Sequence record: PZ445457.1
From: a phage
DNA length: 39,466 nt
Strand: one strand, 5' to 3'
The translations under genes and the position numbers were made by a program. Shown piece after piece: positions 9,511-39,466 of this stretch; the first letter of the stretch is position 1; every line of letters starts with the position of its first letter. A model generated the notes under the pieces. It made no database searches and had not been told where the DNA came from. It saw nothing but the letters and a program-made list of their open reading frames with translations.

Positions 9511-9717
9511 ATGTTGTCATTGGATTTTAACAACGAGGTAGTGAAGGCTGCTCCGATTGTAGGGACAGGTGTAGCCGATGGTGCTGCCAGACTGTTCTTC
9601 GGCCTATCACTTAACGAGTGGTTTTATGTAGCCGCAATTGCCTACACAGTGGCTCAAATTGGTGCCAAGGTAGTCGATGTGGTTATCAAATGGAAGAAGG
9701 AGGGTAGAGATGTCTAA
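9511..9717 (+). CDS. gene 17.5: Class II holin gp17.5 (68 aa)
   Basis: MLSLDFNNEVVKAAPIVGTGVADGAARLFFGLSLNEWFYVAAIAYTVAQIGAKVVD, near identical to recalled T7 gp17.5. Confidence 0.95.
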   Translation: MLSLDFNNEVVKAAPIVGTGVADGAARLFFGLSLNEWFYVAAIAYTVAQIGAKVVDVVIKWKKEGRDV

Positions 9718-9979
9718 CGATAAATCTTTGATTCAATTCCTTGAGATGCTGGATACTGAGATGGCCCAACGTATGCTGAAAGACCTTCAGGATGACGAGA
9801 AGCGCACACCTCAACTGTACAACGCAATCGGGAAACTATTAGAACGCCACAAGTTCCAAGTCTCCAAGTTACAGCCAGACCGTAACATCCTTGGTGGACT
9901 TGCTGATGGACTTCAGGAGTATCAGAACCTAGTAGGCTCCGATGGTCTAACTGAAGATGAGAAGTACACGCTGAACTGA
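9710..9979 (+). CDS. gene 18: Terminase small subunit gp18 (89 aa)
   Basis: Internal ATG at 9710 after RBS aggaggg; MSNDKSLIQFLEMLDTEMAQRML...LYNAIGKLLERHKFQ matches recalled T7 gp18; overlaps 3' end of 17.5. Confidence 0.9.
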   Translation: MSNDKSLIQFLEMLDTEMAQRMLKDLQDDEKRTPQLYNAIGKLLERHKFQVSKLQPDRNILGGLADGLQEYQNLVGSDGLTEDEKYTLN

Positions 9980-9990
9980 TGGTAATACTC

Positions 9991-10014
9991 AAGGCCACTA
10001 CATCTAGTGGTCTT
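9991..10014 (+). promoter_or_regulatory. RNA hairpin, candidate RNase III processing site (R18.5-like)
   Basis: aaggccacta-catc-tagtggtctt, 8-bp stem with one G-U pair, between genes 18 and 18.5. Confidence 0.4.
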
Positions 10015-10519: not shown

Positions 10520-11077
10520 ATGTCTACTGTAAACTCAAGAACCCGTACAATCTGGACTATCAATGGTCGCTCACCGGACAGCCGCGATATGTACGACCGA
10601 AACAATGTTGGCCTTCGTGTTGGGCGTATCGACATCCCGGCTTCAGAAATGGTCAAGGTAGATGGATACGACAAGGTTGAGTATGTGGTCCAACTGAGTG
10701 ATGGTACAACCGAGCAACATGCTACCTTTGAGATCCTGATGTCCACTTGGGGTGGCTCCGTCGAGTCTAAACCGGGTAGTGGGTTCATGACGGTATTCCT
10801 GAATGAGCAAAGCGCTGAGCGGCTCGGTATGGTTCGAATCGACGTATACAAAGAGTGGACTGGTGCCGACCCTGAACCAGAAGGTGGTTCTGCTTCGTTA
10901 GTTAGTGCAGCGCTTTCTGCGTCTGATAGTGCATTTGGTACACAGTTCGTGGATAGCGAAGGAAAGAGCGCTTCCGTTATGTTCCAACCTAGTAACATCG
11001 ACGGGGCTGTATCTAAGACCGACACTATCAAGGCTCTTGAGAAGCGAATCGCTGCTTTAGAGAAACCTACCGAGTAA
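10520..11077 (+). CDS. Hypothetical protein (185 aa), lineage-specific insertion between 18.5 and terminase large subunit; no recognisable motifs
   Basis: Strong RBS taaggag 7 nt upstream, natural-looking composition, no Cys/His motifs, C-terminal amphipathic helix KTDTIKALEKRIAALEK. No T7 counterpart at this position that I recall. Confidence 0.7.
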   Translation: MSTVNSRTRTIWTINGRSPDSRDMYDRNNVGLRVGRIDIPASEMVKVDGYDKVEYVVQLSDGTTEQHATFEILMSTWGGSVESKPGSGFMTVFLNEQSAERLGMVRIDVYKEWTGADPEPEGGSASLVSAALSASDSAFGTQFVDSEGKSASVMFQPSNIDGAVSKTDTIKALEKRIAALEKPTE

Positions 11078-13276: not shown

Positions 13277-13738
13277 ACTGCTCATCGGCGCTTAGTGCGC
13301 TCTTAGTGATTATGGTCGATATATACATCTTCCCTATAATCACTGTAAGAAGTCAACTCTAAGAGTAACCCTTATGTACCACTCTCTATGGTCTACAGGG
13401 TCTCTTAGGGTCTCTCACGTAGTCTCACCGCTATGCTCCTGCGTAGCACCTTATGATAGAGCCTCTGTGGTTAACCTTATGAGCCTTGATGTACCCCCCT
13501 TTAAGAATCCTACAGAAAAATCTGAGAGGGTATCTCATAGTTCATACAAAGTGTTTCCCCCCTATGGCCTCCTTCAGTCCACTCAAAGAGTGCCACCCCT
13601 ATGGTAACTTTATGTTTACTTAATGTCAATCCTTATGTGAGACATTGGGATGACTTATGGTTCACCACTAGATGTGGTGCTTAGGGTGACTTAGTGATAC
13701 TATATGTAGTCCTCTATGTGTCCCTATCTGTAAGTGAC

Positions 13739-13868
13739 CTTTGAGTCATCACCTTATGTTTCCTCTTTGAGTCATCACCTTATGTTTCCTCTTTGAGTCA
13801 TCACCTTATGTTTCCTCTTTGAGTCATCACCTTATGTTTCCTCTTTGAGTTAACACCTTATGACCTCC
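13739..13868 (+). repeat. Tandem direct repeat, 26-bp unit ctttgagtcatcaccttatgtttcct, 4 exact copies plus 1 degenerate
   Basis: Directly visible at 13739-13842 with a diverged fifth copy to 13868; positionally analogous to the T7 left-end repeat array just inside the terminal repeat. Confidence 0.9.
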
Positions 13869-13982
13869 TTATGGCTGGCTATCCTTATGTTAACCTTCAG
13901 TCGGTGCCTTATGTTTATCAGTGACCAGTAGGCTACGTCACTAAGAGAGAATCACTATCTTACTCTGTTTAGCAGTCTCTGA

Positions 13983-14021
<39 letters not shown>

Positions 14022-14077
14022 AGTAGAATTGACTGAGTGCTTATAGTGCCTTAAAGCTGGTTTATAGTCAATAGCCT

Positions 14078-14100
14078 TTATACGACTCACTAATGGGATA
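14078..14100 (+). promoter_or_regulatory. Phage RNAP promoter (phiOL-like)
   Basis: ttatacgactcactaatgggata, first phage promoter after the genome-end region. Confidence 0.65.
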
Positions 14101-14184
14101 GGTTGATTATGGTCTAATTATAATCCCTCCTTATAGTGCTAACTTAAAGACCACTTAAAAGATAACTTAAAGTCTAACTAAGGG

Positions 14185-14213
14185 TTGACTCTAAGAAACA
14201 ACTATGTTCTAAT
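14185..14213 (+). promoter_or_regulatory. Host sigma70-type early promoter (A1-like)
   Basis: TTGACT, 17-nt spacer, TCTAAT. Confidence 0.6.
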
Positions 14214-14322
14214 GGCTACCAGTTGAGAGAGACACAACGCTACCAACTACCAGACAAGACCTAGAGTTATCTGGTAAGGCTGAAGGGTCTCAAGTAGTCA
14301 TCAACCAGACATACGAAAGTGG

Positions 14323-14351
14323 TTGACTCAACGAAAGCAATAACGTAGTAT
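14323..14351 (+). promoter_or_regulatory. Host sigma70-type early promoter (A2-like)
   Basis: TTGACT, 17-nt spacer, TAGTAT. Confidence 0.6.
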
Positions 14352-14416
14352 AGCAGTCGTCAACAACTGATCGCCCTCTGAAACAACATGAGGTGTCATG
14401 GTGAGAAACAAAGTAG

Positions 14417-14446
14417 TTGACAAGTAGTGACGATAAGATGTAAGAT
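14417..14446 (+). promoter_or_regulatory. Host sigma70-type early promoter (A3-like)
   Basis: TTGACA, 18-nt spacer, TAAGAT followed by GTACCAC as in recalled T7 A3. Confidence 0.6.
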
Positions 14447-14637
14447 GTACCACGACATAACGTTCTTGTGATGTCCCACACTGAAAGGGACTCGGTGCTA
14501 ACGAAGCCTGCACTTAAAGCTCTTTAACAATTTGGATGAATAGCACTCTTGAGATGACGACAACAGCGATTAACTCAAGGTGACTCGAAAGAGAGAAGCC
14601 TTTATGATAATCACTGCAACCACATAAGGTAATCATC

Positions 14638-15096
14638 ATGATTCACACTAAAGAGCAAGCTAACGTTTTCTATGTACTGGTAAGCGCATTCCGTTCTAAC
14701 CTCGACGATGAGGTCAACATGAGTCGCCACCGCCACATGGTTAATAATCTGCGCAACGCACCGGGTCTTTATGGTATCGTTGAGTCTACCGATTTAACTG
14801 GCTGTTACCGCGAAGCCATCTCAAGTGCACCGACTGAAGAGAAAACAATCCGTGTACGTTGTAAAGACAAGGCACAGGTTCTTAATGTCGCACGACTGGC
14901 CTGTAATGAGTGGGAACAAGATTGCGTACTGGTCTATAAGTCACAGACTCACACGGCTGGCTTAGTGTACGCTAAAGGCATTGACGGCTATAAGGCTGAA
15001 CGTCTGCAAGGTAGCTTCCAGCGCATCCCTAAAGGTGCACCAATCCAAGGCTGCTTCACGGTTGACGAGTTCGGCAAATACTGGCAGGTAGCATAA
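14638..15096 (+). CDS. gene 0.3: S-adenosyl-L-methionine hydrolase (SAMase), T3-type gene 0.3 anti-restriction protein (152 aa)
   Basis: ...VFYVLVSAFRSNL.DEVNMSRHRHMV...STDLTGCYREAISSAPTEEKT.RVRCKDKAQ.LNVARLACNEWEQDCVLVYKSQTHTAGLVYAKGIDGYKAERL matches recalled T3 SAMase, not T7 Ocr. Confidence 0.85.
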   Translation: MIHTKEQANVFYVLVSAFRSNLDDEVNMSRHRHMVNNLRNAPGLYGIVESTDLTGCYREAISSAPTEEKTIRVRCKDKAQVLNVARLACNEWEQDCVLVYKSQTHTAGLVYAKGIDGYKAERLQGSFQRIPKGAPIQGCFTVDEFGKYWQVA

Positions 15097-19377: not shown

Positions 19378-19935
19378 ATGTTTACTTTAATCACTTCAGT
19401 AGGCGCTCTCGTATCAACCATTCTTGCAGCAACATACTATAATCGTTCAAAGGTATTTCTCACTAAGCTAATCAAAGAAGAGAAGAACTCTCATGCACTC
19501 AAAGAGAGACTTGAAGATGGATGGCGAGAGAAGCAGGAACTAGCTGGTCGAATCCGTACCTTAGAGTTCGAACAACAATATGACATGTCGAACCAACGAG
19601 AACTCATTGAGCGTCTACGCGCTGAGGCAGTGGAGTACCGCAAGGAACTTAAAGAGGCAAAGAGTACCATCCGTGAGTACACTCACAGTGACATCACGTC
19701 TATCAAGTTTACTGCACACATACCGGATGATGGATGGAAGCGCACTGAGTTCAAGCTGGGTCTTGGCTCGTGCGGTAAGCAAGTCACCTGCCTACATTGG
19801 GTGGAACAAGCCGACCGCTACCTGCTGACGCAGACGTGCACTGATGGTGAGCGCAAAGAGTTCACCTATTATAAGAAAGATGTAGCGGGTCGCATTGAGA
19901 TTGCACGTAAGGTTGCAGACAATACGACTCACTAA
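19378..19935 (+). CDS. Hypothetical membrane-anchored coiled-coil protein (185 aa), in the slot between gene 1 and gene 1.1 (T3 gene 1.05-like position)
   Basis: RBS gagga plus repeated ctttaag motifs upstream; N-terminal TM helix MFTLITSVGALVSTILAATYY, central charged coiled-coil, Cys-containing C-terminal domain. T7 has no gene here as I recall. Confidence 0.7.
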   Translation: MFTLITSVGALVSTILAATYYNRSKVFLTKLIKEEKNSHALKERLEDGWREKQELAGRIRTLEFEQQYDMSNQRELIERLRAEAVEYRKELKEAKSTIREYTHSDITSIKFTAHIPDDGWKRTEFKLGLGSCGKQVTCLHWVEQADRYLLTQTCTDGERKEFTYYKKDVAGRIEIARKVADNTTH

Positions 19936-21752: not shown

Positions 21753-22016
21753 ATGTTACGACTACACTTCAACAAATCAAATGGCATCTTCTCTGCCCGT
21801 GGCGCTGACCGTTCAACCGTTCTGGCCTCTGAGAAACATGCAGTCATCCCTAAAGTGCTTGGCTCGACCATTGAGTTAGCACCTCGTGTTCATGCTGTAA
21901 TCACCACTGGCTTATATAAAGAAGCGACCACTGGCTCCCGGCCTTTCATTCCGGTTCTCGTCACCCGTTTCCCTAAAGTCCGTCTGGTAATTGCGCGTAT
22001 CAAGGAGGTGTTCTAA
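21753..22016 (+). CDS. gp1.6-like protein (87 aa)
   Basis: ATG after RBS ggagga; MLRLHFNKSNGIFSARGADRS...; assigned by position and size in the gene 1.6 slot. Confidence 0.6.
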   Translation: MLRLHFNKSNGIFSARGADRSTVLASEKHAVIPKVLGSTIELAPRVHAVITTGLYKEATTGSRPFIPVLVTRFPKVRLVIARIKEVF

Positions 22017-22327
22017 TGGTCTGCATGGCATGTTTAGAGAATGATGACCGCTACCCACATACCTGTGAACCTGTAGCTAAACCACAAGATATAGAGGGTG
22101 TTCGCAAGCCGAGCCACTATATGTTGTTTGATGACATTGAGGCTATCGAAGTGATTGCCCGTTCGATGACCCGTGAACAGTTCAAAGGTTACTGCTTAGG
22201 GAACATCCTTAAGTATCGCCTACGTGCTGGGAAGAAATCCGAACTGGCATTCTTAGAGAAGGACATGGCGAAAGCTGGGTTCTATGGTGAACTGTACGAG
22301 AAACATAAGGACAAGTGCCATGCTTAA
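22016..22327 (+). CDS. gene 1.7: gp1.7-like protein, short form (103 aa) of the T7 nucleotide kinase
   Basis: CLENDDRYPHTC and KPSHYMLFDDIEAIEVIARSMTREQFKGYCLGNILKYRLRAGKKSELAFLEKDMAKA match recalled segments of T7 gp1.7 (about 196 aa); central region absent. Confidence 0.8.
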   Translation: MVCMACLENDDRYPHTCEPVAKPQDIEGVRKPSHYMLFDDIEAIEVIARSMTREQFKGYCLGNILKYRLRAGKKSELAFLEKDMAKAGFYGELYEKHKDKCHA

Positions 22328-22427
22328 TGACATTCTGTATTTTGTACTCATCTGTGCTGGAATGGGTACACTACTTCGTTTAATGTATTGGGCTATAGAG
22401 GTGGAATATGGTAAAACCAAGTGAATG
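22320..22427 (+). CDS. Hypothetical small membrane peptide (35 aa), gene 1.8 position
   Basis: ATG overlapping the 3' end of gene 1.7; MLNDILYFVLICAGMGTLLRLMYWAIEVEYGKTK. Confidence 0.3.
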
Positions 22428-22502
22428 GTGTGAACGTATGTTCGAAAAGACGGGCAACGTTGACTATCTCGAAATGTATAACTATTGGAAAGGGAAAGGA
22501 CT

Positions 22503-22694
22503 ATGAGCAACTTAAACAAAGGGTCACTAGTAAACGGTGACAAGAAGTTCTTCGCAACGGTCGAAGGCCAAGGCCAATCGTTCGAAGTCCCTGTGTTCGC
22601 TGCGTCTCTTGAAGAGGCCAACGAGTTAGCTGAATGGCAGTATGTTCCGGCTGGCTTCGCAGTGACACGCATCCGTCCAGACCGAAAGGTTTAA
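22503..22694 (+). CDS. gene 2: gp2, inhibitor of host RNA polymerase (63 aa)
   Basis: [59 protein letters not shown] matches recalled T7 Gp2; start is an internal ATG of the 22485 track ORF. Confidence 0.9.
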
Positions 22695-22714
22695 TAGGAC
22701 TCACTATTGGGAGA
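22692..22714 (+). promoter_or_regulatory. Phage RNAP promoter (phi2.5-like; -12 G variant)
   Basis: taataggactcactattgggaga. Confidence 0.7.
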
Positions 22715-22763
22715 CACATCGTTTCCCAACTTTTAACTTTCAGAAACTTTAAGGAGAAACATC

Positions 22764-23462
22764 ATGGCTTTCAACAAACGTAAAGTATTCACTTCCGCTC
22801 GTGGCGTTGCTGAACCATACTGCTATCTGGCTAAACCGGACTTCGGTAGCGGTGACTTCAAGAACGAACGCGGTGTCTACAAGGTGTCACTTACTGTATC
22901 CAACGACGACCCTCGCTGTCAGAAAATGATTGACGAGATTGTCGAAGCCCATGAAGCGGACTATGCTGCTCGTCTCGAAGAGTATGAAGCGAACCCGCCG
23001 AAAGTTGTCAAGGGTAAGAAACCGCTGAAGCCGTATGTTGGCGACATGCCTTTCATGGATAACGAAGACGGAACCACTACGTTCAACTTCAAGTGCTACG
23101 GCTCGTTCACTGACAAGAAGACTGGTGAGAACAAACCAATCGACTTGGCTATCGTGGACTCCAAGGGCAAGCGCATTCGTGGCGAACGTCCAGCTATCTC
23201 TGGCGGCTCTGAACTGAAAATCAAATACACCCTGTTCCCTTATGGCTGGTCTGCTGTGGCTGGTGCATCCGTTAAGCTGCAACTGGATTCTGTGATGCTG
23301 ATTAAGCTGGTCGAGTTCGGCGGTGGTGATGATGATTGGGGTGATGAAGTCGAAGAAGACGGTTATGTAGCTGATGAAGCACAGACCCGCACGCCGCAGA
23401 ACGACTCTGGCTGGGACGAAGAACCAGAAGAGGACGATGAAGACGAAGACGGTGACTTCTAA
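22764..23462 (+). CDS. gene 2.5: Single-stranded DNA-binding protein gp2.5 (232 aa)
   Basis: Collinear with recalled T7 gp2.5; acidic C-terminal tail ending ...DEDEDGDF with terminal Phe. Confidence 0.97.
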   Translation: MAFNKRKVFTSARGVAEPYCYLAKPDFGSGDFKNERGVYKVSLTVSNDDPRCQKMIDEIVEAHEADYAARLEEYEANPPKVVKGKKPLKPYVGDMPFMDNEDGTTTFNFKCYGSFTDKKTGENKPIDLAIVDSKGKRIRGERPAISGGSELKIKYTLFPYGWSAVAGASVKLQLDSVMLIKLVEFGGGDDDWGDEVEEDGYVADEAQTRTPQNDSGWDEEPEEDDEDEDGDF

Positions 23463-23908
23463 TGGCTAAGGGTTATGCAGGTCGAGGCACTCGTGTGGGT
23501 GCCTTTCGCTCTGGCTTGGAGGATAAGGTAAGCAAGCAACTCGAAGGGAAGAACATTAAGTTCGACTACGAGCGTTGGCGTGTACCATATGTTGTTCCTG
23601 CAAGCAACCATACCTATTGCCCGGACTTCCTGTTACCTAATGGCATCTTTGTGGAAACAAAGGGTCTGTGGGATAGTGACGACCGCAAGAAACACTTACT
23701 GATTCGTGAACAGTATCCTGAACTTGATGTGCGCATCGTGTTCTCTTCTAGTCGCTCCAAGCTGTACAAAGGGTCTCCGACCAGTTATGGCGAGTGGTGT
23801 GAGAAGCATGGCATTCTGTTTGCTGACAAATTAATTCCAGTTGATTGGCTTAAAGAGCCTTCTAAGGATGTTCCATTCGATAAATTTAAAGAGGTGAAGA
23901 AGAAATGA
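23462..23908 (+). CDS. gene 3: Endonuclease I (Holliday junction resolvase) gp3 (148 aa)
   Basis: VGAFRSGLEDKVSKQLE...PASNHTY.PDFLLPNGIFVETKGLW.SDDRKKHLLIREQ matches recalled T7 gp3. Confidence 0.97.
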   Translation: MAKGYAGRGTRVGAFRSGLEDKVSKQLEGKNIKFDYERWRVPYVVPASNHTYCPDFLLPNGIFVETKGLWDSDDRKKHLLIREQYPELDVRIVFSSSRSKLYKGSPTSYGEWCEKHGILFADKLIPVDWLKEPSKDVPFDKFKEVKKK

Positions 23909-24360
23909 GTAAGGTACAATTCAAACCACGCGCTGTGACAGAAGCAATCTTTGTGCACTGTAGCGCAACTAAGGCGACCATGAACGTGGGTCTGCGTGAA
24001 ATCCGTCAGTGGCATAAAGAACAGGGCTGGCTTGATGTAGGCTACCACTTCATTATTCGCCGCGATGGTACAATCGAAGAAGGCCGTCCGGTCGATGTCG
24101 TTGGGTCTCACGTTAAGGACTGGAACAGTAAGTCAGTCGGTGTGTGCCTCGTTGGTGGTATCGACGATAAGGGCAGACACGAAGCTAACTTTACGCCAGC
24201 ACAGATGCACTCTCTGAAAGAGAAACTTGCAGACCTGCTGGACATGTATCCAGATGCTGAAGTGAAAGCTCACCATGACGTTGCACCTAAAGCGTGTCCG
24301 TCTTTCAACTTGAGTCGCTGGCTGAAAACTGGCGAATTAGTAACTAGTGATTGGGGTTAA
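23905..24360 (+). CDS. gene 3.5: N-acetylmuramoyl-L-alanine amidase (T7 lysozyme) gp3.5 (151 aa)
   Basis: AIFVHCSATK...REIRQWHKEQGWLDVGYHFII.RDGT...SIGVCLVGGIDDKG...ANFTPAQM...HH.VAPKACPSF matches recalled T7 gp3.5. Confidence 0.97.
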   Translation: MSKVQFKPRAVTEAIFVHCSATKATMNVGLREIRQWHKEQGWLDVGYHFIIRRDGTIEEGRPVDVVGSHVKDWNSKSVGVCLVGGIDDKGRHEANFTPAQMHSLKEKLADLLDMYPDAEVKAHHDVAPKACPSFNLSRWLKTGELVTSDWG

Positions 24361-24365
24361 ACACT

Positions 24366-24458
24366 ATGATGATTATTCACGAGATGGGCCTGTACGATTT
24401 GATTTATCGCCTCGCGTTCATGCTGGCAATGGTCTACATTCTGACCCGCAAGGATTAA
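24366..24458 (+). CDS. Hypothetical small hydrophobic peptide (30 aa)
   Basis: MMIIHEMGLYDLIYRLAFMLAMVYILTRKD; between lysozyme and primase genes; no strong RBS. Confidence 0.25.
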   Translation: MMIIHEMGLYDLIYRLAFMLAMVYILTRKD

Positions 24459-24478
24459 TAGAACTCACTATGGGAGGA
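24456..24478 (+). promoter_or_regulatory. Degenerate phage promoter-like sequence (phi3.8/phi4-like)
   Basis: taatagaactcactatgggagga; deviates at -12/-11 and is one nt short before GGGA. Confidence 0.4.
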
Positions 24479-24528
24479 CCGAAAGGTTTCTCCCTTTGTT
24501 CGCTAAAATTGTATAAGGAGTAACCACT

Positions 24529-26338
<1,810 letters not shown>

Positions 26339-26403
26339 TAGCAATTGGGTAGACCAGTGGGAAGAACTGAACGAGCGCGAACAGGCGCTCTACAGAAAGC
26401 AAT

Positions 26404-26426
26404 CAATACAACTCACTAATGGGACA
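26404..26426 (+). promoter_or_regulatory. Phage RNAP promoter (phi4.3-like; -11 A variant)
   Basis: caatacaactcactaatgggaca, followed by a 5' stem-loop (acaga-cac-tctgt). Confidence 0.6.
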
Positions 26427-26469
26427 GACACTCTGTTCCCACTTATCAATCCACTTAAGGAGAATCACA

Positions 26470-26682
26470 ATGTTTAAATTCATCAACACTCTTGGTAAGC
26501 TGGTAGTTAAAATGTACTTCCGTGAAGCTAAACGTCTGAACGACAAGGCACGTAAGGATGCAGAACAGGCTCAACGCTTGGCGAAACAGGCACGTCTACT
26601 GTCTGAAGATGCAAGTGCTGGCGTTACGTCTGCTGCTAAGATTGCAGCGAAAGCAACCGACCTGAACAAGTTCTTCCTGTAA
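26470..26682 (+). CDS. gene 4.3: gp4.3-like protein (70 aa)
   Basis: MFKFINTLGKLVVKMYFREAKRLNDKARKDAEQ... resembles recalled T7 gp4.3; RBS taaggag. Confidence 0.75.
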   Translation: MFKFINTLGKLVVKMYFREAKRLNDKARKDAEQAQRLAKQARLLSEDASAGVTSAAKIAAKATDLNKFFL

Positions 26683-26861
26683 TGGTTACGATAACCCTTG
26701 TGCTCACTCTGATAACTGTGAGCGGACAAACAATAAGTCAAGTCCCTATCACGGCACCAAAGGCTGAGGCATACGAGATATGCGAACAGCAAGGGCGCTC
26801 GTGGTCTAAGGACTTGATGAAGAACGGCAGGGTTTTCACTGCCAACTACAACTGTATCTAA
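26682..26861 (+). CDS. Hypothetical small protein with signal-peptide-like N-terminus (59 aa)
   Basis: ATG overlaps upstream stop (taatg); MVTITLVLTLITVSGQTISQVP... hydrophobic N-terminus then polar domain with 2 Cys. Confidence 0.45.
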   Translation: MVTITLVLTLITVSGQTISQVPITAPKAEAYEICEQQGRSWSKDLMKNGRVFTANYNCI

Positions 26862-26875
26862 TAGGAGTACACAAC

Positions 26876-27178
26876 ATGGCTATTAAATTCCCCGGCAACA
26901 CAATCCGTCTGTCTGACACCATCGACCAGTATGCTCGCCGAGTGCACATCAACGTTCGCAACGGCAAGGTAACTCTGGTCTATCGCTGGAAGGACAGTAA
27001 GTCCACCAAGGCGCACACACAGCGTGTGACTCTGGATGACACACAGGCAGGTCGTCTGCTGGCCTCCGTTGCTGTAGCTGCTACTGTGGCTGTAGGTGAA
27101 GACAATGTTCGTCAGGTTCTGCTGGGTAAGACAGTAGAGTCTGAGGGCAACATGCTTGCTGACAAGTGTGAAGAGTAA
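26876..27178 (+). CDS. Hypothetical protein (100 aa), gene 4.5/4.7 region
   Basis: RBS taggag; ORF in the + strand operon context; no motif recognised. Confidence 0.6.
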   Translation: MAIKFPGNTIRLSDTIDQYARRVHINVRNGKVTLVYRWKDSKSTKAHTQRVTLDDTQAGRLLASVAVAATVAVGEDNVRQVLLGKTVESEGNMLADKCEE

Positions 27179-27180
27179 GA

Positions 27181-27223
27181 GTTAAACTAAAGGGCATCTA
27201 CATGGTGGCCTTCGTGATTAACT
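27181..27223 (+). promoter_or_regulatory. Conserved hairpin element, candidate RNase III site
   Basis: gttaaactaaagggcatctacatggtggccttcgtgattaact; third copy of the element family. Confidence 0.5.
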
Positions 27224-27234
27224 TTTGTATGGAA

Positions 27235-27257
27235 TCTATTCAACTCACTAATGGGAG
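27235..27257 (+). promoter_or_regulatory. Degenerate phage promoter-like sequence
   Basis: tctattcaactcactaatgggag; -10 to +4 conserved, AT-rich upstream part diverged. Confidence 0.3.
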
Positions 27258-27265
27258 AACAACAC

Positions 27266-27445
27266 TATGCGTAATCGTAATGTAATCGAAGCTGAAATCG
27301 CTAAACTGGAAGCTGAACTGGCAGACGTTAAAGAGTATGAATGTGCTCGTGATTCTGCGGTACACATCCTGAAGAACTTAGGGTGGACTCGTGTTCGCGG
27401 TAAGTGGGGTGAAACCTACCAAGGCAAACACCAAGCTGTTCGATA
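27266..27445 (+). CDS. Hypothetical protein (59 aa)
   Basis: MRNRNVIEAEIAKLEAELADVKEYE... short coiled-coil then basic tail; below track cutoff. Confidence 0.4.
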
Positions 27446-27453
27446 AGGACACC

Positions 27454-27666
27454 ATGACCCACATTAAGGCTGGTGACTTCTGCGCATCAACTGAGACATC
27501 CTCTCTATGGTACGTGCGCGCTGTCGCTGGCAACATCTGCTGGTGCTCACGAGTGTCCCGCATTGCTCCTAATGGAACCTTAGTAACCAGCAACAACGTT
27601 GGCATCAAAGCTGAGAACCTGAAGGTAATCAACGTGAAAGACTATATGGGATACACCCATCGTTAA
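27454..27666 (+). CDS. Hypothetical protein (70 aa)
   Basis: Internal ATG of track ORF 27391..27666 preceded by taaggac; immediately upstream of DNA polymerase. Confidence 0.45.
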   Translation: MTHIKAGDFCASTETSSLWYVRAVAGNICWCSRVSRIAPNGTLVTSNNVGIKAENLKVINVKDYMGYTHR

Positions 27667-27685
27667 ACTTTAAGGAGTAAACACA

Positions 27686-29800
27686 ATGTTACTATCCGAC
27701 ATCGAAACAAACGGGTTGCTGCACAACGTTAGTCAATTTCACTGTGCGGTGACTTACGACTACACAACTGACCAGTACATCCGTTACCGACCTGATGACT
27801 TTGGGGCATACATTGATGCACTCGAAGCCGAGGTTGCTCGTGGTGGTCTCATTGTGTTCCACAACGGTCACAAGTATGACGTTCCTGTTATCGAGAAGCT
27901 GGCGAAGCTGATTCTGAATCGTGACGTTAAGTTCCCGAAAGAGAACGTCTTGGACACCTTAGTGATGTCCCGACTGATTTACTCTAACATCAAAGACACT
28001 GATGCTGGTCTGCTGCGTTCTGGCAAGCTGCCGGGTAAACGCTTTGGCTCTCACGCTCTTGAGGCGTGGGGCTACCGCTTAGGCGAAATGAAGGGTGAGT
28101 ACAAGGACGACTTTAAGAAGTCACTGGAAGAGTCTGGTGATGAATACGAAGAGGGGATGGAGTGGCTGTTCTTCAACGAAGACATGATGGAGTATAACGT
28201 TCAAGACGTTGTAGTTACCAAGGCACTCTTTGAGAAACTGTGTAGTAACACTTTCTATTTCCCGAACGAGACACCCGCTGGAAGCACAGAAGCAGAACGT
28301 TTCTGGAACGGTAGCCTTGAGGCTGTCAAGCTGGAACATGATGCTGCTTGGTTGTTAGCTAAGATGGAACGTAACGGTTTCCCTATTGACATCAAGTCCT
28401 TAGAGAATCTTTACGCTGAACTAGCTGGTCGCCGTGGTGAACTTCTGGTCGAACTGACCAACACTTTCGGTTCGTGGTATCAGGCCAAGGGTGGCGTTGA
28501 GGCGTTCCGTCATCCGAGAACTGGTAAGCCGCTCACTAAGTATCCTCGTGTGAAGTATCCGAAACAGGGTGGCATATTTAAGAAGCCAAAGAACAAGAAG
28601 CAACGTGAAGGTCTGGAACCTTGTGAACTGGACACTCGCGATTATGTAGAGGGCGCTCCGTATACGCCTGTAGAGCACGTTGTGTTTAACCCTGCAAGTC
28701 GTGAACACATCACCCGTGTGCTTACCAAAGCTGGATGGGTTCCCGTTGAGTTCACTCCGAGTGGTGCACCAAAGGTAGACGATGAGGTATTGGAACACGT
28801 TAAGGTAGACGACCCGGATGCACAGCGTTGCATTGAGTTGATTAAAGAATACCTTATGATTCAGAAACGTATCGGTCAGGTTGCTGAAGGTGATAACGGC
28901 TGGCTCCGAATGATTGGAGACGATGGTCGTATTCACGGTAGCGTTAACCCGAACGGTGCGGTAACTGGACGTGCAACTCATAGTTTCCCTAACGTGGCAC
29001 AGGTGCCTTCAATCCGTGCTGCATATGGTGAACCTTGCCGTGCTGCTTTCGGTGCCGAGCACAACATGAAAGACGGTAAGCCAGACCCTTGGATTCAAGT
29101 TGGTGTGGATGCGTCCGGCCTTGAGCTACGCTGCTTGGGTCACTTCATGTATCGCTATGATGAGGGAGAGTACGTTGAGACCATCCTCACTGGTGACATC
29201 CATACGAAGAACCAATTGGCTGCGGGTCTACCGACTCGTGACAACGCTAAGACGTTTATCTATGGGTTCCTCTATGGTGCTGGTGCTGCGAAGATTGGAC
29301 AGATTGTTGGTGGTACTGCCGAAGATGGTAAGCGCCTCATCAAGAACTTCCTTGAGCAAACTCCGGCTATCGCTGCGTTGCGTGAAGCAATCACAGGTAC
29401 ACTCGTCAAGGACTCTAAGTGGGTTGGCGGTGAACAGAAAGTAACTTGGAAACGCCGTTGGGTTCGTGGCTTGGATGGTCGTAAAGTACACGTCCGTAGT
29501 CCCCACGCTGCGTTGAACACCTTGTTGCAATCTGCTGGTGCTCTGATTTGTAAACTGTGGATTGTAGAGACTGAGCGTCTGTTACTGGAAGCTGGCCTGA
29601 AGCATGGCTGGGATGGTGACTTTGCGTACATGGCTTGGGTCCACGACGAAATTCAGGTAGCTGCTCGTACACAAGAGATTGCCGATAAGATTGTCAAGTT
29701 GGCACAACAAGCGATGCGTAATGTGGGAGACCACTTTAACTTTAGATGTCAGTTAGATACCGAAGGTAAGACTGGCGCAAACTGGAAAGATTGTCACTAA
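27686..29800 (+). CDS. gene 5: DNA polymerase gp5 (704 aa), family A with 3'-5' exonuclease
   Basis: Exo motif SDIETNGL; thioredoxin-binding region; pol motifs YGFLYGAG and HDEIQV; collinear with recalled T7 gp5. Confidence 0.98.
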   Translation: MLLSDIETNGLLHNVSQFHCAVTYDYTTDQYIRYRPDDFGAYIDALEAEVARGGLIVFHNGHKYDVPVIEKLAKLILNRDVKFPKENVLDTLVMSRLIYSNIKDTDAGLLRSGKLPGKRFGSHALEAWGYRLGEMKGEYKDDFKKSLEESGDEYEEGMEWLFFNEDMMEYNVQDVVVTKALFEKLCSNTFYFPNETPAGSTEAERFWNGSLEAVKLEHDAAWLLAKMERNGFPIDIKSLENLYAELAGRRGELLVELTNTFGSWYQAKGGVEAFRHPRTGKPLTKYPRVKYPKQGGIFKKPKNKKQREGLEPCELDTRDYVEGAPYTPVEHVVFNPASREHITRVLTKAGWVPVEFTPSGAPKVDDEVLEHVKVDDPDAQRCIELIKEYLMIQKRIGQVAEGDNGWLRMIGDDGRIHGSVNPNGAVTGRATHSFPNVAQVPSIRAAYGEPCRAAFGAEHNMKDGKPDPWIQVGVDASGLELRCLGHFMYRYDEGEYVETILTGDIHTKNQLAAGLPTRDNAKTFIYGFLYGAGAAKIGQIVGGTAEDGKRLIKNFLEQTPAIAALREAITGTLVKDSKWVGGEQKVTWKRRWVRGLDGRKVHVRSPHAALNTLLQSAGALICKLWIVETERLLLEAGLKHGWDGDFAYMAWVHDEIQVAARTQEIADKIVKLAQQAMRNVGDHFNFRCQLDTEGKTGANWKDCH

Positions 29801-29815
29801 TACAGGAGGCCGCTT

Positions 29816-30043
29816 ATGGCATGGCGATACAGGATTCGGGAAGTCCGAATAACTACAGGTGAGACTTTATACTACCCACAGTTCCGTCATGCGTGGCTAC
29901 CATTCTGGTTCCACTTTAAGGGCTACACAGAAGAACGTAGGGTGTCATTCACTTATTATTCCGAAGCATTGGGGTTCATCAATGAATGTAAACTAAATGA
30001 TGAACCTGAGGAACGGAATGTTATCAGAAACCACTATCTTTAA
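29816..30043 (+). CDS. Hypothetical protein (75 aa), gene 5.3 position
   Basis: RBS aggagg; aromatic-rich sequence; no recognised motif. Confidence 0.55.
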   Translation: MAWRYRIREVRITTGETLYYPQFRHAWLPFWFHFKGYTEERRVSFTYYSEALGFINECKLNDEPEERNVIRNHYL

Positions 30044-30055
30044 AGGAGAAACATC

Positions 30056-30349
30056 ATGGTTATTACTAAACGTTTTAAAGTATCGTTCGAAATGACTGTT
30101 AAGGTGGACTCTGAGACCGAAGTTATGATTCAGGAACGTATCTTAGACTTGGCTCGCAGTGTACGTGATGGCGAGAAAGTCAGTGCACAGGACAAAGAGT
30201 TGCTTGTTCAGGCTCTGACTTACGGTGCAGATGGTGCTGTGGCCTTTGCTGTTAAGCAGGGTGTCCGTAATGAAATCCGTGAGATGGGCATTGAGCACCA
30301 CGGAGAAGGCATTAAGTTTGCACCAGCAACTATCCGTGAGGTGAAGTAA
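30056..30349 (+). CDS. gene 5.5: gp5.5, H-NS-binding protein (97 aa)
   Basis: M.ITKRFKVSF..T.K...E......ATIREV. resembles recalled T7 gp5.5. Confidence 0.8.
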   Translation: MVITKRFKVSFEMTVKVDSETEVMIQERILDLARSVRDGEKVSAQDKELLVQALTYGADGAVAFAVKQGVRNEIREMGIEHHGEGIKFAPATIREVK

Positions 30350-30558
30350 TGGGTGAATATCTACGTGTACTGGCGGCTATCAAAAGCTGCCCTAAGACCT
30401 TTCAGTCGAACTATGTGCGCAACAATGCGTCACTGGTGGCTGAGGCTGCGAGCCGTGGTCATATCTCTTGCCTATCAGTCGATGGGCGTAATGCTGGCGC
30501 TTGGGAAGTAACAGGCGCTGGTGTCCGATTCCTGAAGAAGATGGGAGGTTGCGTATGA
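30349..30558 (+). CDS. gene 5.7: gp5.7 (69 aa)
   Basis: ...YL.VL.AIKSCPKTFQSNYVRNNASLVAEAASRGHISCL...GGCV nearly identical to recalled T7 gp5.7. Confidence 0.9.
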   Translation: MGEYLRVLAAIKSCPKTFQSNYVRNNASLVAEAASRGHISCLSVDGRNAGAWEVTGAGVRFLKKMGGCV

Positions 30559-31469
30559 GTGCAATTACACTGAAGGAGTTCTATGAGTTACGCCAAGGCA
30601 AATCTGATAAGGGTGTCTTGGTCATGGATGGTGACTGGCTGGTATTCCAAGCGATGGCAGCAAGTGAAGTCGAAACCGATTGGGGTGACGATGTGTGGAC
30701 CTTAGAGTGTGACCATGCGAAAGCGTGGAATATCCTCGTGGATTCCATTAAGTCCTATGCGAGCCGTAAGAAGGCTTGGCGTGATGCACCTATCGTATTG
30801 GCCTTCACTGACTCTGTGAACTGGCGTAAGGAACTGGTGGACCCAACCTATAAGGAGAACCGTAAGGCATCCCGTAAGCCTGTAGGCTACCGTGCGTTCG
30901 TCGAGCGTGTTCAAGCCTGTGAGGACTGGACGTCTATCCTTGAGGACCGACTTGAGGGCGATGACGTAATGGGAATCATTGGGTCTGGTGCTAAACACTT
31001 TGGTTTCAAGAAGGCTGTGCTGGTCTCCTGTGATAAGGACTTTAAGACCATCCCTGATTGTGACTTCTTGTGGTGCACTACTGGTAACATCTTGACTCAA
31101 GACCAGACTACTGCTGACTACTGGCACATCTATCAGACCATTAAAGGTGACTTGACTGATGGCTATGGTGGCATTCCGGGCTGGGGAGAGACTACCGCTG
31201 AGTGGCTTGAGAACCCATATGCCTTTGAACAGGTTGAGAAAACCTTTAAGTCTGGTGCCCGTAAGGGTCAGACGGTTCTCGAATGGAAGAAGGTCGACAT
31301 GGGTGAGCGAACCTTATGGGAAGCGATTGTGACCCTCGGTGCCAAAGCTGGGATGACCGAAGAGGAAATCATTAAGCAAGGCCAGATGGCTCGCATCCTG
31401 CGTTTCGAAGAGTACAACTTTATCGACAAGGAGATTTACCTATGGTCGCCGGAACAGTTGCGTTCGTAA
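30555..31469 (+). CDS. gene 6: 5'-3' exonuclease gp6 (304 aa)
   Basis: Internal ATG overlapping the 5.7 stop; ...KGVLVMDGDWLVFQAM..., APIVLAFTDSVNWRKELVDPTYK.NRK, SCDKDFKTIPDCDFLWCTTGNILTQ, GMTEEEIIKQGQMARILRFEEYNFIDKEIYLW match recalled T7 gp6. Confidence 0.95.
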   Translation: MSAITLKEFYELRQGKSDKGVLVMDGDWLVFQAMAASEVETDWGDDVWTLECDHAKAWNILVDSIKSYASRKKAWRDAPIVLAFTDSVNWRKELVDPTYKENRKASRKPVGYRAFVERVQACEDWTSILEDRLEGDDVMGIIGSGAKHFGFKKAVLVSCDKDFKTIPDCDFLWCTTGNILTQDQTTADYWHIYQTIKGDLTDGYGGIPGWGETTAEWLENPYAFEQVEKTFKSGARKGQTVLEWKKVDMGERTLWEAIVTLGAKAGMTEEEIIKQGQMARILRFEEYNFIDKEIYLWSPEQLRS

Positions 31470-31555
31470 TGTTCGCAATCGTAGCCTTCGCTATGGTGTG
31501 GGCTGCATTTATAGCTAAGAGTGTGTAACTCTAGGCATTCTTCTCTACGTGAAAT

Positions 31556-31578
31556 CAATACGACTCACTATTGGAGAG
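31556..31578 (+). promoter_or_regulatory. Phage RNAP promoter (phi6.5-like)
   Basis: caatacgactcactattggagag. Confidence 0.7.
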
Positions 31579-31631
31579 GGGTGCCTATATGATACCTACT
31601 TTAAGTTCTAACTTTAAGGAGAACATTAATT

Positions 31632-31877
31632 ATGTTAACCCCTATCAAGAAGTATATGGAGAACCCACAAGATATTCCTAATGTTCCTCGGAGTGTTATG
31701 GAGTATCTACAGGTTCAATACAATGCTGGATATGCTATTCAGTCAGGTCTAATCAACCGATTGAAACAGGCTGGATGGTCTGAAAGCTACATTGCTGGGT
31801 TCCTTGCGGGTCTCAACTATGCGTCCCAAACTCTGGATGACATGGAGGCAATCCGTAAGGAACAGGCTGAGTCCTAA
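31632..31877 (+). CDS. gene 6.5: gp6.5-like protein (81 aa)
   Basis: RBS taaggag; positional equivalent of T7 gene 6.5. Confidence 0.7.
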   Translation: MLTPIKKYMENPQDIPNVPRSVMEYLQVQYNAGYAIQSGLINRLKQAGWSESYIAGFLAGLNYASQTLDDMEAIRKEQAES

Positions 31878-31892
31878 TCATATGGAGGTCTT

Positions 31893-32165
31893 ATGTGCTT
31901 TTCACCAAAGATTAAGACACCTAAAGTAAATACAGATACTGTCCGAGCTATTGACCCAGCGCCACTGACTGAGGAACCGAAAGGTATTCTCTTTGGAGGC
32001 GATGAGGACACCGATAGCGGAACCTCGTCTGAGGTGCCAACGGGCGGCAAGAAGTCGCTTAAGGTGAAACTGGATGACTCCGTTGAGAAATCCAAGAAGG
32101 CTGATGATGCAGCCAAGAAGAAGTCCAAGTCTGGTATTCGTACCAGTGTCTTTAAGAAGAAATAA
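31893..32165 (+). CDS. gene 6.7: gp6.7 virion protein (90 aa)
   Basis: MCFSPKIKTPK....T...RA..PAPLT.E matches recalled T7 gp6.7 N-terminus; lysine-rich C-terminus. Confidence 0.85.
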   Translation: MCFSPKIKTPKVNTDTVRAIDPAPLTEEPKGILFGGDEDTDSGTSSEVPTGGKKSLKVKLDDSVEKSKKADDAAKKKSKSGIRTSVFKKK

Positions 32166-32179
32166 TTAGGAGGTGTATC

Positions 32180-32536
32180 ATGGGTTGGGGCAAAAAGATT
32201 CGCAAATCAGTCAAGAAGGCTGTCAGGAAAGTAACCAAGCCTGTAGAGAAAGCTGTTAAGCAGGTCGGTAAGGCTGGTGAAGACATCGTTAAAGGTGCTG
32301 CTGGTGTCGTTAGTGGTGTTCTGGCTGGTGGTAAGCCTGATGTACAAGTCGTTGAGACCCCTGCTGCTGCTGTACAGGCTGCACCTCCGGCTGCACAGAT
32401 TATCGAGCCACCGAGTAAAGACGATGTAGACTCCGATGATGGTGCACAGACTGAATCAGGTAAGAAGAAAGCCCGTGCTGGCGGTAAGAAATCTCTAAGT
32501 GTCGCTCGCAGTTCTGGCGGTGGTCTTAACATTTAA
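32180..32536 (+). CDS. gene 7.3: gp7.3 virion/tail-associated protein (118 aa)
   Basis: C-terminus AQTESGKKKARAGGKKSLSVARSSGGGLNI matches recalled T7 gp7.3. Confidence 0.9.
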   Translation: MGWGKKIRKSVKKAVRKVTKPVEKAVKQVGKAGEDIVKGAAGVVSGVLAGGKPDVQVVETPAAAVQAAPPAAQIIEPPSKDDVDSDDGAQTESGKKKARAGGKKSLSVARSSGGGLNI

Positions 32537-37146: not shown

Positions 37147-39466
37147 ATGGCTCTTATTTCACAATCCGTCAAGAACCTGAAGGGCGGTATCAGTCAACAG
37201 CCAGACATCTTAAGGTTCCCCGAACAGGGTTCCGAACAGATTAACGGCTGGTCTTCGGAGACTGAGGGTCTTCAGAAGCGTCCACCTTTTGTCTTCACTA
37301 AGACCATTGGAGACCAGAATGCCCTTGGTGCAAAACCACTCATCCATTTAATCAACCGCGATAGTGTAGAACAGTATTACGTTGTGTTCACAGGACAGGC
37401 AGTCCGAGTGTTCGACCTCAATGGCAAGGAGTACACCGTGAAAGGTGACTTGAGCTACGTGAAGGTAGGAAACCCGCGTGATGACCTGCGAATGGTGACG
37501 GTTGCTGACTATACGTTTATCGTCAACCGCAACATGGTGGTTCGTGCCGATAAGACACCGCTCTATACTCTGAAAGAGAACGGAGACTGTTTGATTAACG
37601 TTCGAGGTGGACAGTATGGGAGAACGCTTGCATTCACAATAAACAACGTCCGTATTGAGTACAAGATTGCACAAGGTGACAAGCCTGAACATGTGCAAGA
37701 GACCGATGCGCAGTGGCTCGTTAAGAAACTGGCAGGTCTTGCTCGTGCTCACGATTCCTTCAAGGACTGGAAGTTCAACGAGGGGTCTGGCTTCATACAC
37801 GTAATCGCTCCGGGCAACAGTCAGATTAACCAGTTGTCCACCGAGGATGGCTATGCTAACCAGTTGATGAACGCTGTGATGCACACAAGCCAGTCATTCA
37901 GTAAGTTGCCAATCGAGGCTCCTAATGGATACACTGTGAAGATTGTGGGTGACACCTCTAAGACTTCCGATATGTTCTATGTCCAATATGACAACGTGAA
38001 GAAAGTCTGGAAGGAAGTCGCAGGATGGGGAGTTGAGAAGGGTCTCAATAGTGCCACTATGCCACACGCTTTGGTCCGTCAATCAGATGGCTCATTCGCT
38101 ATGCAGGTTCTACCGTGGGCACAGCGCTCTTGTGGGGATATGGATACTAACCCAACTCCGTCTATCGTAGACCAGAAGATTAACGATGTGTTCTTCTTCC
38201 GTAACCGCTTAGGGTTCCTCGCTGGTGAGAACATTGTGATGTCTCGTACCTCCAAGTATTTCTCACTGTTCCCTGCGTCAGTGGCTAACCTGTCAGATGA
38301 TGACCCGATTGATGTGGCTGTATCCCACAACCGTATCTCAATCCTGAAGTATGCCGTACCGTTCTCCGAAGAGTTGCTGCTATGGTCTGACCAAGCACAG
38401 TTCGTTCTGTCTGCCTCTGGCATCCTCTCACCGAAGTCTGTAGAGTTGAACCTTACGACTGAGTTCGATGTGTCCGACCGCGCACGTCCTTATGGTGTTG
38501 GTCGTGGTGTGTACTTTGCGTCACCTCGTGCCTCTTATACATCACTGAACCGCTACTATGCTGTACAGGACGTAAGTTCCGTTAAGTCTGCTGAGGATAT
38601 GAGTGCTCACGTTCCAAGCTATATCCCCAACGGTGTGTTCTCCATTCGTGGTTCTGGTACTGAGAACTTTATCTCTGTGCTCTCTGCGAACGCCCCTAGT
38701 AAAATCTTCCTGTACAAATTCCTGTATCTAAACGAAGAGATTACACAACAGGCGTGGTCACATTGGGAACTTGGAAGTAACGTAACGGTTCTGGCTTGTG
38801 ACTCTATTGGCTCAACTATGTACCTTGTGTTGCGCAATCAGTCACACACTTGGATGTGCCGAGCACACTTCACGAAGAACAGCATTGACTTCGATAGCGA
38901 GCCTTACCGCTTGTATATTGACAACAAGATAAAGTATGTGATTCCTAAAGGTGCCTACAACGATGACACTTACACGACCACTATCAAGCCTGTGGACATC
39001 TACGGGATGAAGTATTGGAAGGGTAAGTTCTACATCGTAGCCTCTGACGGTCTGGTATCGTGGTTCGAGCCACCTCGTGGTGGATGGCCTAATGGTGTCC
39101 CTGTGTTGTCAATGAGTGGGAACCGAGAGGGTGAGACTATTTACATTGGGTTGGCTATAGACTTCCGTTATGTGTTCTCTAAGTTCCTCATTAAGAAGAC
39201 CGCCGATGATGGTTCAACAGCTACCGAGGATATTGGGCGCTTGCAGCTTCGCCGTGCGTGGGTCAACTATGAGGACTCCGGTGCATTCACTGTGGAGGTT
39301 GAGAACACCTCTCGACTCTTCAGCTACGACATGGCTGGTGCTCGCTTGGGTTCCAATGCTCTACGTGCTGGTGGACTTAATGTTGGTACTGGTCAGTTCA
39401 GATTCCCGGTTGCTGGCAACGCGCAGTTGAACGAAGTAAGGATTATCTCTGACCACACTACACCGC
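37147..39466 (+). CDS. gene 12: Tail tubular protein B gp12, N-terminal 773 codons; continues at window position 1
   Basis: MALISQSVKNLKGGISQQPDILRFPEQGS.Q.NGWSSETEGLQKRPP matches recalled T7 gp12; no stop before window end; completes at 1..59. Confidence 0.95.
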   Translation, partial: MALISQSVKNLKGGISQQPDILRFPEQGSEQINGWSSETEGLQKRPPFVFTKTIGDQNALGAKPLIHLINRDSVEQYYVVFTGQAVRVFDLNGKEYTVKGDLSYVKVGNPRDDLRMVTVADYTFIVNRNMVVRADKTPLYTLKENGDCLINVRGGQYGRTLAFTINNVRIEYKIAQGDKPEHVQETDAQWLVKKLAGLARAHDSFKDWKFNEGSGFIHVIAPGNSQINQLSTEDGYANQLMNAVMHTSQSFSKLPIEAPNGYTVKIVGDTSKTSDMFYVQYDNVKKVWKEVAGWGVEKGLNSATMPHALVRQSDGSFAMQVLPWAQRSCGDMDTNPTPSIVDQKINDVFFFRNRLGFLAGENIVMSRTSKYFSLFPASVANLSDDDPIDVAVSHNRISILKYAVPFSEELLLWSDQAQFVLSASGILSPKSVELNLTTEFDVSDRARPYGVGRGVYFASPRASYTSLNRYYAVQDVSSVKSAEDMSAHVPSYIPNGVFSIRGSGTENFISVLSANAPSKIFLYKFLYLNEEITQQAWSHWELGSNVTVLACDSIGSTMYLVLRNQSHTWMCRAHFTKNSIDFDSEPYRLYIDNKIKYVIPKGAYNDDTYTTTIKPVDIYGMKYWKGKFYIVASDGLVSWFEPPRGGWPNGVPVLSMSGNREGETIYIGLAIDFRYVFSKFLIKKTADDGSTATEDIGRLQLRRAWVNYEDSGAFTVEVENTSRLFSYDMAGARLGSNALRAGGLNVGTGQFRFPVAGNAQLNEVRIISDHTTP

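Follow-up and report, generated by a model that had tools for sequence, protein, structure and literature searches.

The 39,466-bp sequence of record PZ445457.1, analysed over its whole length and here called the window, is a T7-like phage genome, complete and assembled as a circular permutation, that differs from T7 in having a short gene 1.7, no gene 5.9 between genes 5.7 and 6, and no gene 7 between genes 6.7 and 7.3. We consider it very likely that these three differences are ordinary accessory-gene states of the genus Berlinvirus, and their combination is already known, e.g., from the published phage 285P. The original prediction, which had pointed out the three features, also regarded them as informative for lineage placement. 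This was not supported: the length of gp1.7 and the presence of genes 5.9 and 7 all vary inside Berlinvirus, and therefore none of the three is a lineage marker. Gene 5.9, for instance, is present in phages vB_CECAV_058, ErnstBeyeler, and Yersinia phage Berlin, and absent from 285P, BA14, S523, and others.

Genome and genus placement

In tblastn searches of the whole window, all T7 core genes were found and the T7 order was kept. Gene 12 runs out of the right end and is completed at the left, with residues 1-775 of T7 gp12 matching positions 37147-39465 and residues 777-794 matching positions 3-56. The contig ends (39465-39466 and 1-56) thus fall inside this tail gene, with the terminal repeat collapsed; the real genome ends and the terminal repeat are probably located in a largely non-coding stretch at about 13300-14600. 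Because the window contains the entire genome, the absences of genes 5.9 and 7 are genome-wide.

A megablast search with the region of the three features (22016-32536) showed 90-96% nucleotide identity to Berlinvirus records, and the other half of the genome gave a similar picture. The top matches were Salmonella phage vB_CECAV_058 (94.4%, full coverage) and Escherichia phage ErnstBeyeler (Bas67; 96.1%), followed by 285P, BA14, PYPS50, S523, and others. Membership of Berlinvirus was judged by genome-wide nucleotide similarity of at least about 70% together with collinearity with recognised members. The window showed 90-96% identity to 285P, BA14, S523, ErnstBeyeler, vB_CECAV_058, and others over most of the genome, an intergenomic similarity of approximately 87% to vB_CECAV_058 and ErnstBeyeler, the two complete nearest genomes, and a gene map in T7 order. 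The phage belongs to Berlinvirus (Autographiviridae, Studiervirinae), a well-sampled genus in which it is distinct and mosaic.

For comparison, T7, T3, and 15 Berlinvirus genomes were used, the latter consisting of 2 full records, 12 isolate genomes, and 1 metagenome contig found through gp6; a partial BA14 record supplied one further gp1.7 sequence. Counts out of 16 Berlinvirus genomes given below include the window phage.

Gene 5.9 is missing from the 5.7/6 junction

As predicted, gene 6 starts directly at the stop of gene 5.7, leaving no room for gene 5.9: the ATG of gene 6 (30555) and the TGA of gene 5.7 overlap as ATGA at 30555-30558 within GGGAGGTTGCGTATGAGTGCA, and a GGAGG ribosome-binding site lies upstream of the ATG (Table 1). 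When the gp5.9 proteins of T7 and T3 and the Berlinvirus-type 5.9 were searched against the whole window by tblastn, only chance-level matches were obtained (E of at least 0.1). A profile hidden Markov model (HMM) of six 5.9 proteins, built in this analysis like the other HMM used below, gave a best E of 0.5 against 1,435 six-frame open reading frames (ORFs), comprising all ORFs of at least 15 aa and spanning the circular junction. By both methods, no recognisable homologue of the gp5.9 RecBCD inhibitor family (PF25708; phrog_9014, phrog_4790, and phrog_6234) was found genome-wide.

In the nearest relatives, exactly this spot is occupied by a gene for a protein of 61 aa (vB_CECAV_058, insert of 182 bp) or 59 aa (ErnstBeyeler, insert of 176 bp), annotated as host RecBCD nuclease inhibitor. 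Over their first 30 aa, these proteins share 47-50% identity with T7 gp5.9 (E about 1e-10), and the Berlinvirus-type 5.9 matches three PHROGs annotated as RecBCD inhibitors.

The slot between genes 5.7 and 6 was surveyed in the best 60 megablast matches to the 5.7-6 segment after removal of GenBank/RefSeq duplicates; the counts in this paragraph refer to these matches. Approximately 11 distinct phages (S523, Carena, 285P, nasanit, vB_SEqdws-315, D226, P483, BSP161, BA14, Shigella phage A7, and RN5i1) have the same empty junction as the window. A 5.9-like insert of 172-182 bp is carried by approximately 29 phages, including every Yersinia phage (Berlin among them), Kvp1, P694, PhiV-1, and others, and longer, different inserts are found in approximately 7. 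In FE44, the slot holds a gene for a 128-aa HNH endonuclease (9613-10000 of the compared FE44 stretch), and in the BP12A group, one for an unrelated, very acidic protein of 97 aa (phrog_18166, unknown function; 9708-10001 of the compared BP12A stretch), which could be a different DNA mimic. Other cassettes also occupy the slot in SWJM-03, LPST144, DS_BP2, JSS2, and P151. All isolates lacking 5.9 came from Escherichia coli, Salmonella, or Shigella, an observation that is descriptive, the Yersinia phages being nearly clonal.

In genomes carrying 5.9, this gene starts as ...GCGTATGAGTCTG and gene 6 as ...CTTATGAG(T/C)GCA, and the window reads ...GCGTATGAGTGCA. Gene 5.9 of vB_CECAV_058 and ErnstBeyeler begins with TATGAGT, and TATGAG(T/C) recurs at the start of gene 6. 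Compared with the filled junctions, the window therefore misses exactly one gene between 6-7-bp direct repeats, TATGAG(T), which lie inside two ATGA-coupled start sites.

Gene 7 is missing from the 6.7/7.3 spacer

Gene 7.3 begins 14 bp past gene 6.7 (32165/32180), and the claim that this leaves no room for gene 7 held. In the whole window, the best tblastn match to T7 gp7 had an E of 0.44, and an HMM of the gp7 proteins of T7, A7, and P694 gave a best E of 1 against the 1,435 ORFs. No homologue of the T7 gene 7 host range protein family (phrog_2746) was thus found genome-wide, and the 14 bp are all that lies between genes 6.7 and 7.3. Diverged copies of gene 5.9 or 7 elsewhere in the genome, named beforehand as the finding that would speak against the absences, were covered by these tblastn and HMM searches, and none appeared.

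Of the 16 Berlinvirus genomes, 13 lack gene 7; the 14-bp spacer (YTAGGAGGTDTATC) is kept in 12 of these, and a 17-bp variant is found in BP12A. The remaining three (P694, Shigella phage A7, and the metagenome contig) carry a 128-aa gene 7 product 44-46% identical to T7 gp7, accompanied in each case by a T7-like N-terminus of gp7.3, which suggests a block exchange. Homologues of T7 gp7 were found in 206 phage records, mostly of Teseptimavirus. Gene 7 is accordingly no part of the usual Berlinvirus gene set, and the 14-bp spacer is the majority state of the genus.

Since the contig is circularly permuted with its terminal repeat collapsed, and gene 4.7 shows a +1 frameshift at a run of G that looks suspicious, one may ask whether the absences are artefacts of sequencing or of a collapsed or mis-joined assembly. 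This is extremely improbable. Both junctions are base-for-base equal to those of a dozen independently sequenced isolates and keep translational coupling and ribosome-binding sites, and an artefactual loss of 176-182 bp falling exactly between two start codons is implausible.

Loss or gain of gene 5.9

The flanks of the empty junction are closest to those of phages carrying 5.9. The 200 nt upstream are 100% identical to ErnstBeyeler, and the 200 nt downstream are 97% identical to P694 and at most 91% identical to any phage lacking 5.9. In trees of the flanks, empty and filled junctions form sister pairs (285P/Kvp1, P483/P694, and S523-BSP161/ErnstBeyeler). A 5.9 homologue is also found at this site in T7, T3, and many phages of Klebsiella, Citrobacter, and Serratia; presence is therefore taken as ancestral and the empty state as a loss. 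Taken together, the interleaving of empty and filled states in the flank trees points to recurrent clean loss of 5.9, the direction being inferred from the distribution in other genera.

The arrangement of the junction would provide a simple route for such a loss. Gene 5.9, for a DNA-mimic RecBCD inhibitor, would have been ancestral between genes 5.7 and 6. Both 5.9 and gene 6 start with ATGAG(T) within ATGA junctions that couple their translation to the gene before. Recombination across the 6-7-bp repeats, or slippage, could delete exactly one gene and rejoin gene 6 to the stop of gene 5.7, and the same loss may have happened several times in members infecting E. coli, Salmonella, and Shigella. 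Two points weigh against this account. Recombination is rampant in these phages, and part of the interleaving in the trees could stem from one old deletion whose flanks were later shuffled, rather than from several independent deletions. In addition, the repeat is short and dictated by the Met-Ser start of both genes; it permits a clean deletion without proving one.

Alternatively, the empty junction could be the ancestral state of Berlinvirus, with the relatives having gained 5.9 by insertion or horizontal transfer. The HNH endonuclease of FE44 and the acidic protein of the BP12A group do show that the site accepts insertions. However, the occurrence of a homologous gene at this site in other genera (T7, T3, and the phages of Klebsiella, Citrobacter, and Serratia), its presence in Berlin and all other Yersinia members among the best 60 matches, and the closeness of the window flanks to genomes carrying 5.9 make a gain quite unlikely. 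The mildly new part of these observations is a repeat-bounded and apparently recurrent loss of 5.9, together with reuse of the slot for alternative cassettes.

RecBCD and host defence

T7 gp5.9 is an inhibitor of RecBCD (and MukBEF), acting on RecBCD as a coiled-coil DNA mimic that blocks its DNA-binding site (PMC9836394). It sets off the Ec48 retron, according to Millman et al. 2020 as cited in PMC9836394, and is a reported trigger of type III Sir2-HerA (PMC13434337). In T7, gene 5.9 is conditionally dispensable, with an importance that depends on the host (PhageMaP preprint, PMC11482910). T7 gp1.7 is a reported activator of EfAvs5 (PMC11897194). The predicted relevance to host defence is reasonable for genes 5.9 and 1.7, as judged not from the window sequence itself but from their counterparts in T7, which are reported to trigger or inhibit host systems.

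By analogy to these reports, a phage without 5.9 plausibly trades protection from RecBCD for invisibility to such guards. A wider proposal, which is tentative and which we hold to be rather unlikely, is that in Berlinviruses 5.7/6 would be a one-gene swap/loss slot, from which 5.9 would be repeatedly deleted via the ATGAG(T) repeats. In E. coli, Salmonella, and Shigella hosts, selection would favour the deletion because abortive-infection systems, namely retron Ec48 and type III Sir2-HerA, sense gp5.9, and phages lacking 5.9 would escape these guards at the cost of exposure to RecBCD.

It may also be asked whether inhibition was retained through a non-homologous RecBCD countermeasure elsewhere in the genome. 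Candidates would be the small conserved genes of unknown function at 26682-26861, 29816-30043, 10520-11077, and 19378-19935, and the over-representation of Chi. The Chi octamer GCTGGTGG has 9 sites (e.g., 4608, 4659, 12791, 21250, and 32324) against 1.65 expected, i.e., about 5-fold, with 8 of them on the coding (+) strand. However, when the window is compared with the two complete genomes carrying 5.9, no DNA is particular to it except the tail-fibre tip and the 185-aa ORF (10520-11077), and this ORF occurs in phages with and without 5.9 alike. An equal Chi excess is found in T7, T3, and the relatives carrying 5.9, with the same bias to the coding strand (7/7 sites in T7 and 11/12 in T3). Compensation is therefore improbable, and its two concrete forms, a window-specific gene and a Chi-based defence particular to this phage, were rejected. 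The Chi excess is family-wide and unlinked to the loss of 5.9, possibly arising from GCU-GGU-GG codon usage on the coding strand.

By itself, the finding adds little, the pattern being visible in annotated public genomes (285P, BA14, and S523) and placing the phage no better than whole-genome similarity does. A modest practical use lies elsewhere: the window phage, with no 5.9 and a minimal gp1.7, and its close relatives differing at these sites form a natural comparison set for sensitivity to defence systems.

The short gene 1.7

The third feature, a gp1.7 of 103 aa keeping the Cys-rich N-terminal and the C-terminal segments of the 196-aa T7 protein, was likewise found as described. In tblastn, residues 96-196 of T7 gp1.7 matched positions 22043-22324 with 75% identity. 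Alignment of the two proteins showed that the motif C(M/I)ACLExDDRYPHTC (MVCMACLENDDRYPHTCE) is fused straight to the C-terminal core, leaving residues 1-19 and approximately 36-115 of the T7 protein without counterpart. The layout is therefore a CxxC...HxC knuckle followed by a complete DUF3310 core, the latter matching PF11753 over profile positions 1-58 of 60 with 79.5 bits (gathering cut-off 24), which places the protein in this family. The protein is 100% identical to gp1.7 of vB_CECAV_058 and 96% identical to that of 285P.

Within Berlinvirus, gp1.7 occurs in lengths of 97, 103, 104, 114, 121, 123, 140, 147, 159, and 169 aa. Among 21 variants, the C-terminal 80 aa or so (KPQDIEGVR.PSHYMLFDD...KHK.KC) are nearly invariant, and alignment showed that the N-terminal half consists of shuffled modules. 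It comprises the first 19 residues of T7 gp1.7 alone (A7 and P483), the Cys/His knuckle alone (window phage, 285P, vB_CECAV_058, and PYPS50), both of these (Kvp1), the knuckle and a second Cys cluster (BA14 and S523), an unrelated module (ErnstBeyeler and PP74), or a duplication (P694). The knuckle is found in most Berlinvirus variants; it is absent from A7, P483, and T3, and is therefore dispensable in nature. In all, 1,256 phage records match gp1.7, matches to the DUF3310 core only being common among them, and one matching record is annotated as "lacks the N-terminal region". Solved structures were looked for in the gp1.7 family and none was found.

The C-terminal half of T7 gp1.7 is reportedly enough for dideoxythymidine sensitivity (Tran et al., Mol Microbiol 2010). 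The protein is modular, with an invariant core of about 80 aa as the part implicated in the dTMP/dGMP kinase activity of T7 and an N-terminal half free to be shuffled. DUF3310 has been tied to the kinase activity of T7 gp1.7 (PMC9339283), and dTMP/dGMP kinase activity in a protein with no recognisable nucleotide-binding motif is, in the accounts of earlier work in PMC11897194 and PMC9339283, established for T7 gp1.7 alone.

Two readings of the short form may be considered. It could be a decaying, non-functional remnant of a T7-type enzyme, some 93 residues of T7 gp1.7 being missing, including the second Cys cluster. This is very unlikely, however: the core is essentially invariant over the 21 variants while the N-terminus varies, the identical 103-aa protein is found in vB_CECAV_058, a phage otherwise approximately 92% identical, the DUF3310 match is full length, and forms equally short or shorter are widespread among the 1,256 records. 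The invariance of the core, the full DUF3310 domain, and the wide distribution of short forms therefore argue for a functional minimal enzyme rather than a remnant. As judged from these comparisons, the window gp1.7 is most likely a minimal version, knuckle plus core, that still works as a nucleotide kinase. This retained kinase activity is predicted from sequence conservation, the member for which it is established being T7 gp1.7.

Table 1. Positions of genes and sites at the three variable loci in the window
Feature	Position	Strand	Evidence or remark
Gene 1.7, short 103-aa form annotated nucleotide kinase	22016..22327	+	ORF; best PHROG phrog_2585 "nucleotide kinase", E 5.6e-58
N-terminal Cys/His knuckle of gp1.7 (C3, C6, H15, C17)	22022..22066	+	T7 gp1.7 residues 21-35, 87% identity
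DUF3310 core domain of gp1.7, residues 29-90	22100..22285	+	Pfam PF11753
Gene 5.7	30349..30558	+	T7 gp5.7, 81% identity over the full 69 aa
5.7/6 junction TATGAGTG, empty 5.9 slot	30553..30560	+	Exact site of 5.9 in vB_CECAV_058 and ErnstBeyeler
Gene 6 (5'-3' exonuclease)	30555..31469	+	65% identical to T7 gp6, residues 1-300; 100% identical to S523 protein
Gene 6.7	31893..32165	+	Pfam T7-like_gp67, E 4.1e-27; tblastn
14-bp 6.7/7.3 spacer TTAGGAGGTGTATC with ribosome-binding site, empty gene 7 slot	32166..32179	+	
Gene 7.3	32180..32536	+	Pfam VirionAssem_T7, E 7.4e-25

Other genes

The list of gene-content differences from T7 in the original prediction was correct in what it named and incomplete. 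In tblastn of the whole window, T7 genes 0.4, 0.5, 0.6, 1.4, 2.8, 3.8, 4.1, 5.3, and 7.7 also had no counterpart, and gene 0.3 (ocr) is replaced by a T3-type S-adenosylmethionine (SAM) hydrolase gene. In its early region, the genome resembles T3 and not T7: the SAM hydrolase (14638-15096) is 89% identical to T3 gp0.3, and a 185-aa protein (19378-19935) carries the T3 gene 1.05 domain (PF25755) at its C-terminus.

Genes 2.8, 3.8, 5.3, and 7.7, which are annotated as (HNH) endonuclease genes in the T7 record, have no counterparts genome-wide, and the putative homing endonuclease encoded after gene 19 in ErnstBeyeler has no match in the window. As far as these comparisons go, the genome appears free of such endonuclease elements. 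Between genes 5 and 5.5, in the slot of T7 5.3, lies a 75-aa ORF (29816-30043; phrog_18049, unknown function, no Pfam match). It is shared by vB_CECAV_058 and by ErnstBeyeler, whose record labels it a putative homing endonuclease, and is absent from 285P. The 185-aa ORF at 10520-11077, between the spanin genes and the terminase gene 19, matches phrog_20446 (unknown function) and no Pfam family; it is absent from vB_CECAV_058 and ErnstBeyeler, and is found in approximately 10 other Berlinviruses and, truncated, in Yersinia phages, showing no correlation with the 5.9 state.

Gene 4.7 (27267-27666) is split into overlapping ORFs at 27267-27446 and 27391-27666. A G-run at 27406-27409 reads GGGG in the window versus GGG in 285P, vB_CECAV_058, and ErnstBeyeler, the rest of the gene being near-identical to that of vB_CECAV_058; the extra G stems from a sequencing error in the homopolymer or else marks a genuine frameshift.

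Comparison with known phages

T7 (NC_001604, Teseptimavirus) is collinear with the window phage, shares a gp1.7 core with 75% identity, and has genes 5.7, 6, 6.7, and 7.3 conserved. It differs in having a 196-aa gp1.7, gp5.9 (52 aa), gp7 (133 aa), Ocr, and genes 2.8, 3.8, 5.3, and 7.7. T3 (NC_003298, Teetrevirus) resembles the window phage in lacking gene 7 and in having the SAM hydrolase gene 0.3 and homologues of genes 0.6, 1.05, and 1.1; it differs in carrying gp5.9, 98% identical to that of T7, and a gp1.7 of 163 aa that lacks the Cys knuckle.

Within Berlinvirus, vB_CECAV_058 (PQ356389) and ErnstBeyeler (MZ501064) share with the window phage the absence of gene 7 and the 75-aa ORF after gene 5, and vB_CECAV_058 also the identical 103-aa gp1.7. 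Unlike the window phage, both carry the 59-61-aa 5.9-like gene between genes 5.7 and 6, and gp1.7 of ErnstBeyeler, at 147 aa, differs in its N-terminal module. BA14, S523, BSP161, and P483 share two of the three states. Phage 285P (GQ468526/NC_015249, Berlinvirus) has all three: a 103-aa gp1.7, the ATGA overlap of the 5.7 stop and the gene 6 start without 5.9, and the 14-bp 6.7/7.3 spacer without gene 7. It is nevertheless a different phage, with approximately 93.5% nucleotide identity over the region, an intact gene 4.7, no 75-aa ORF between genes 5 and 5.5, and 5.7/6 flanks less like those of the window than are the flanks of phages carrying 5.9.

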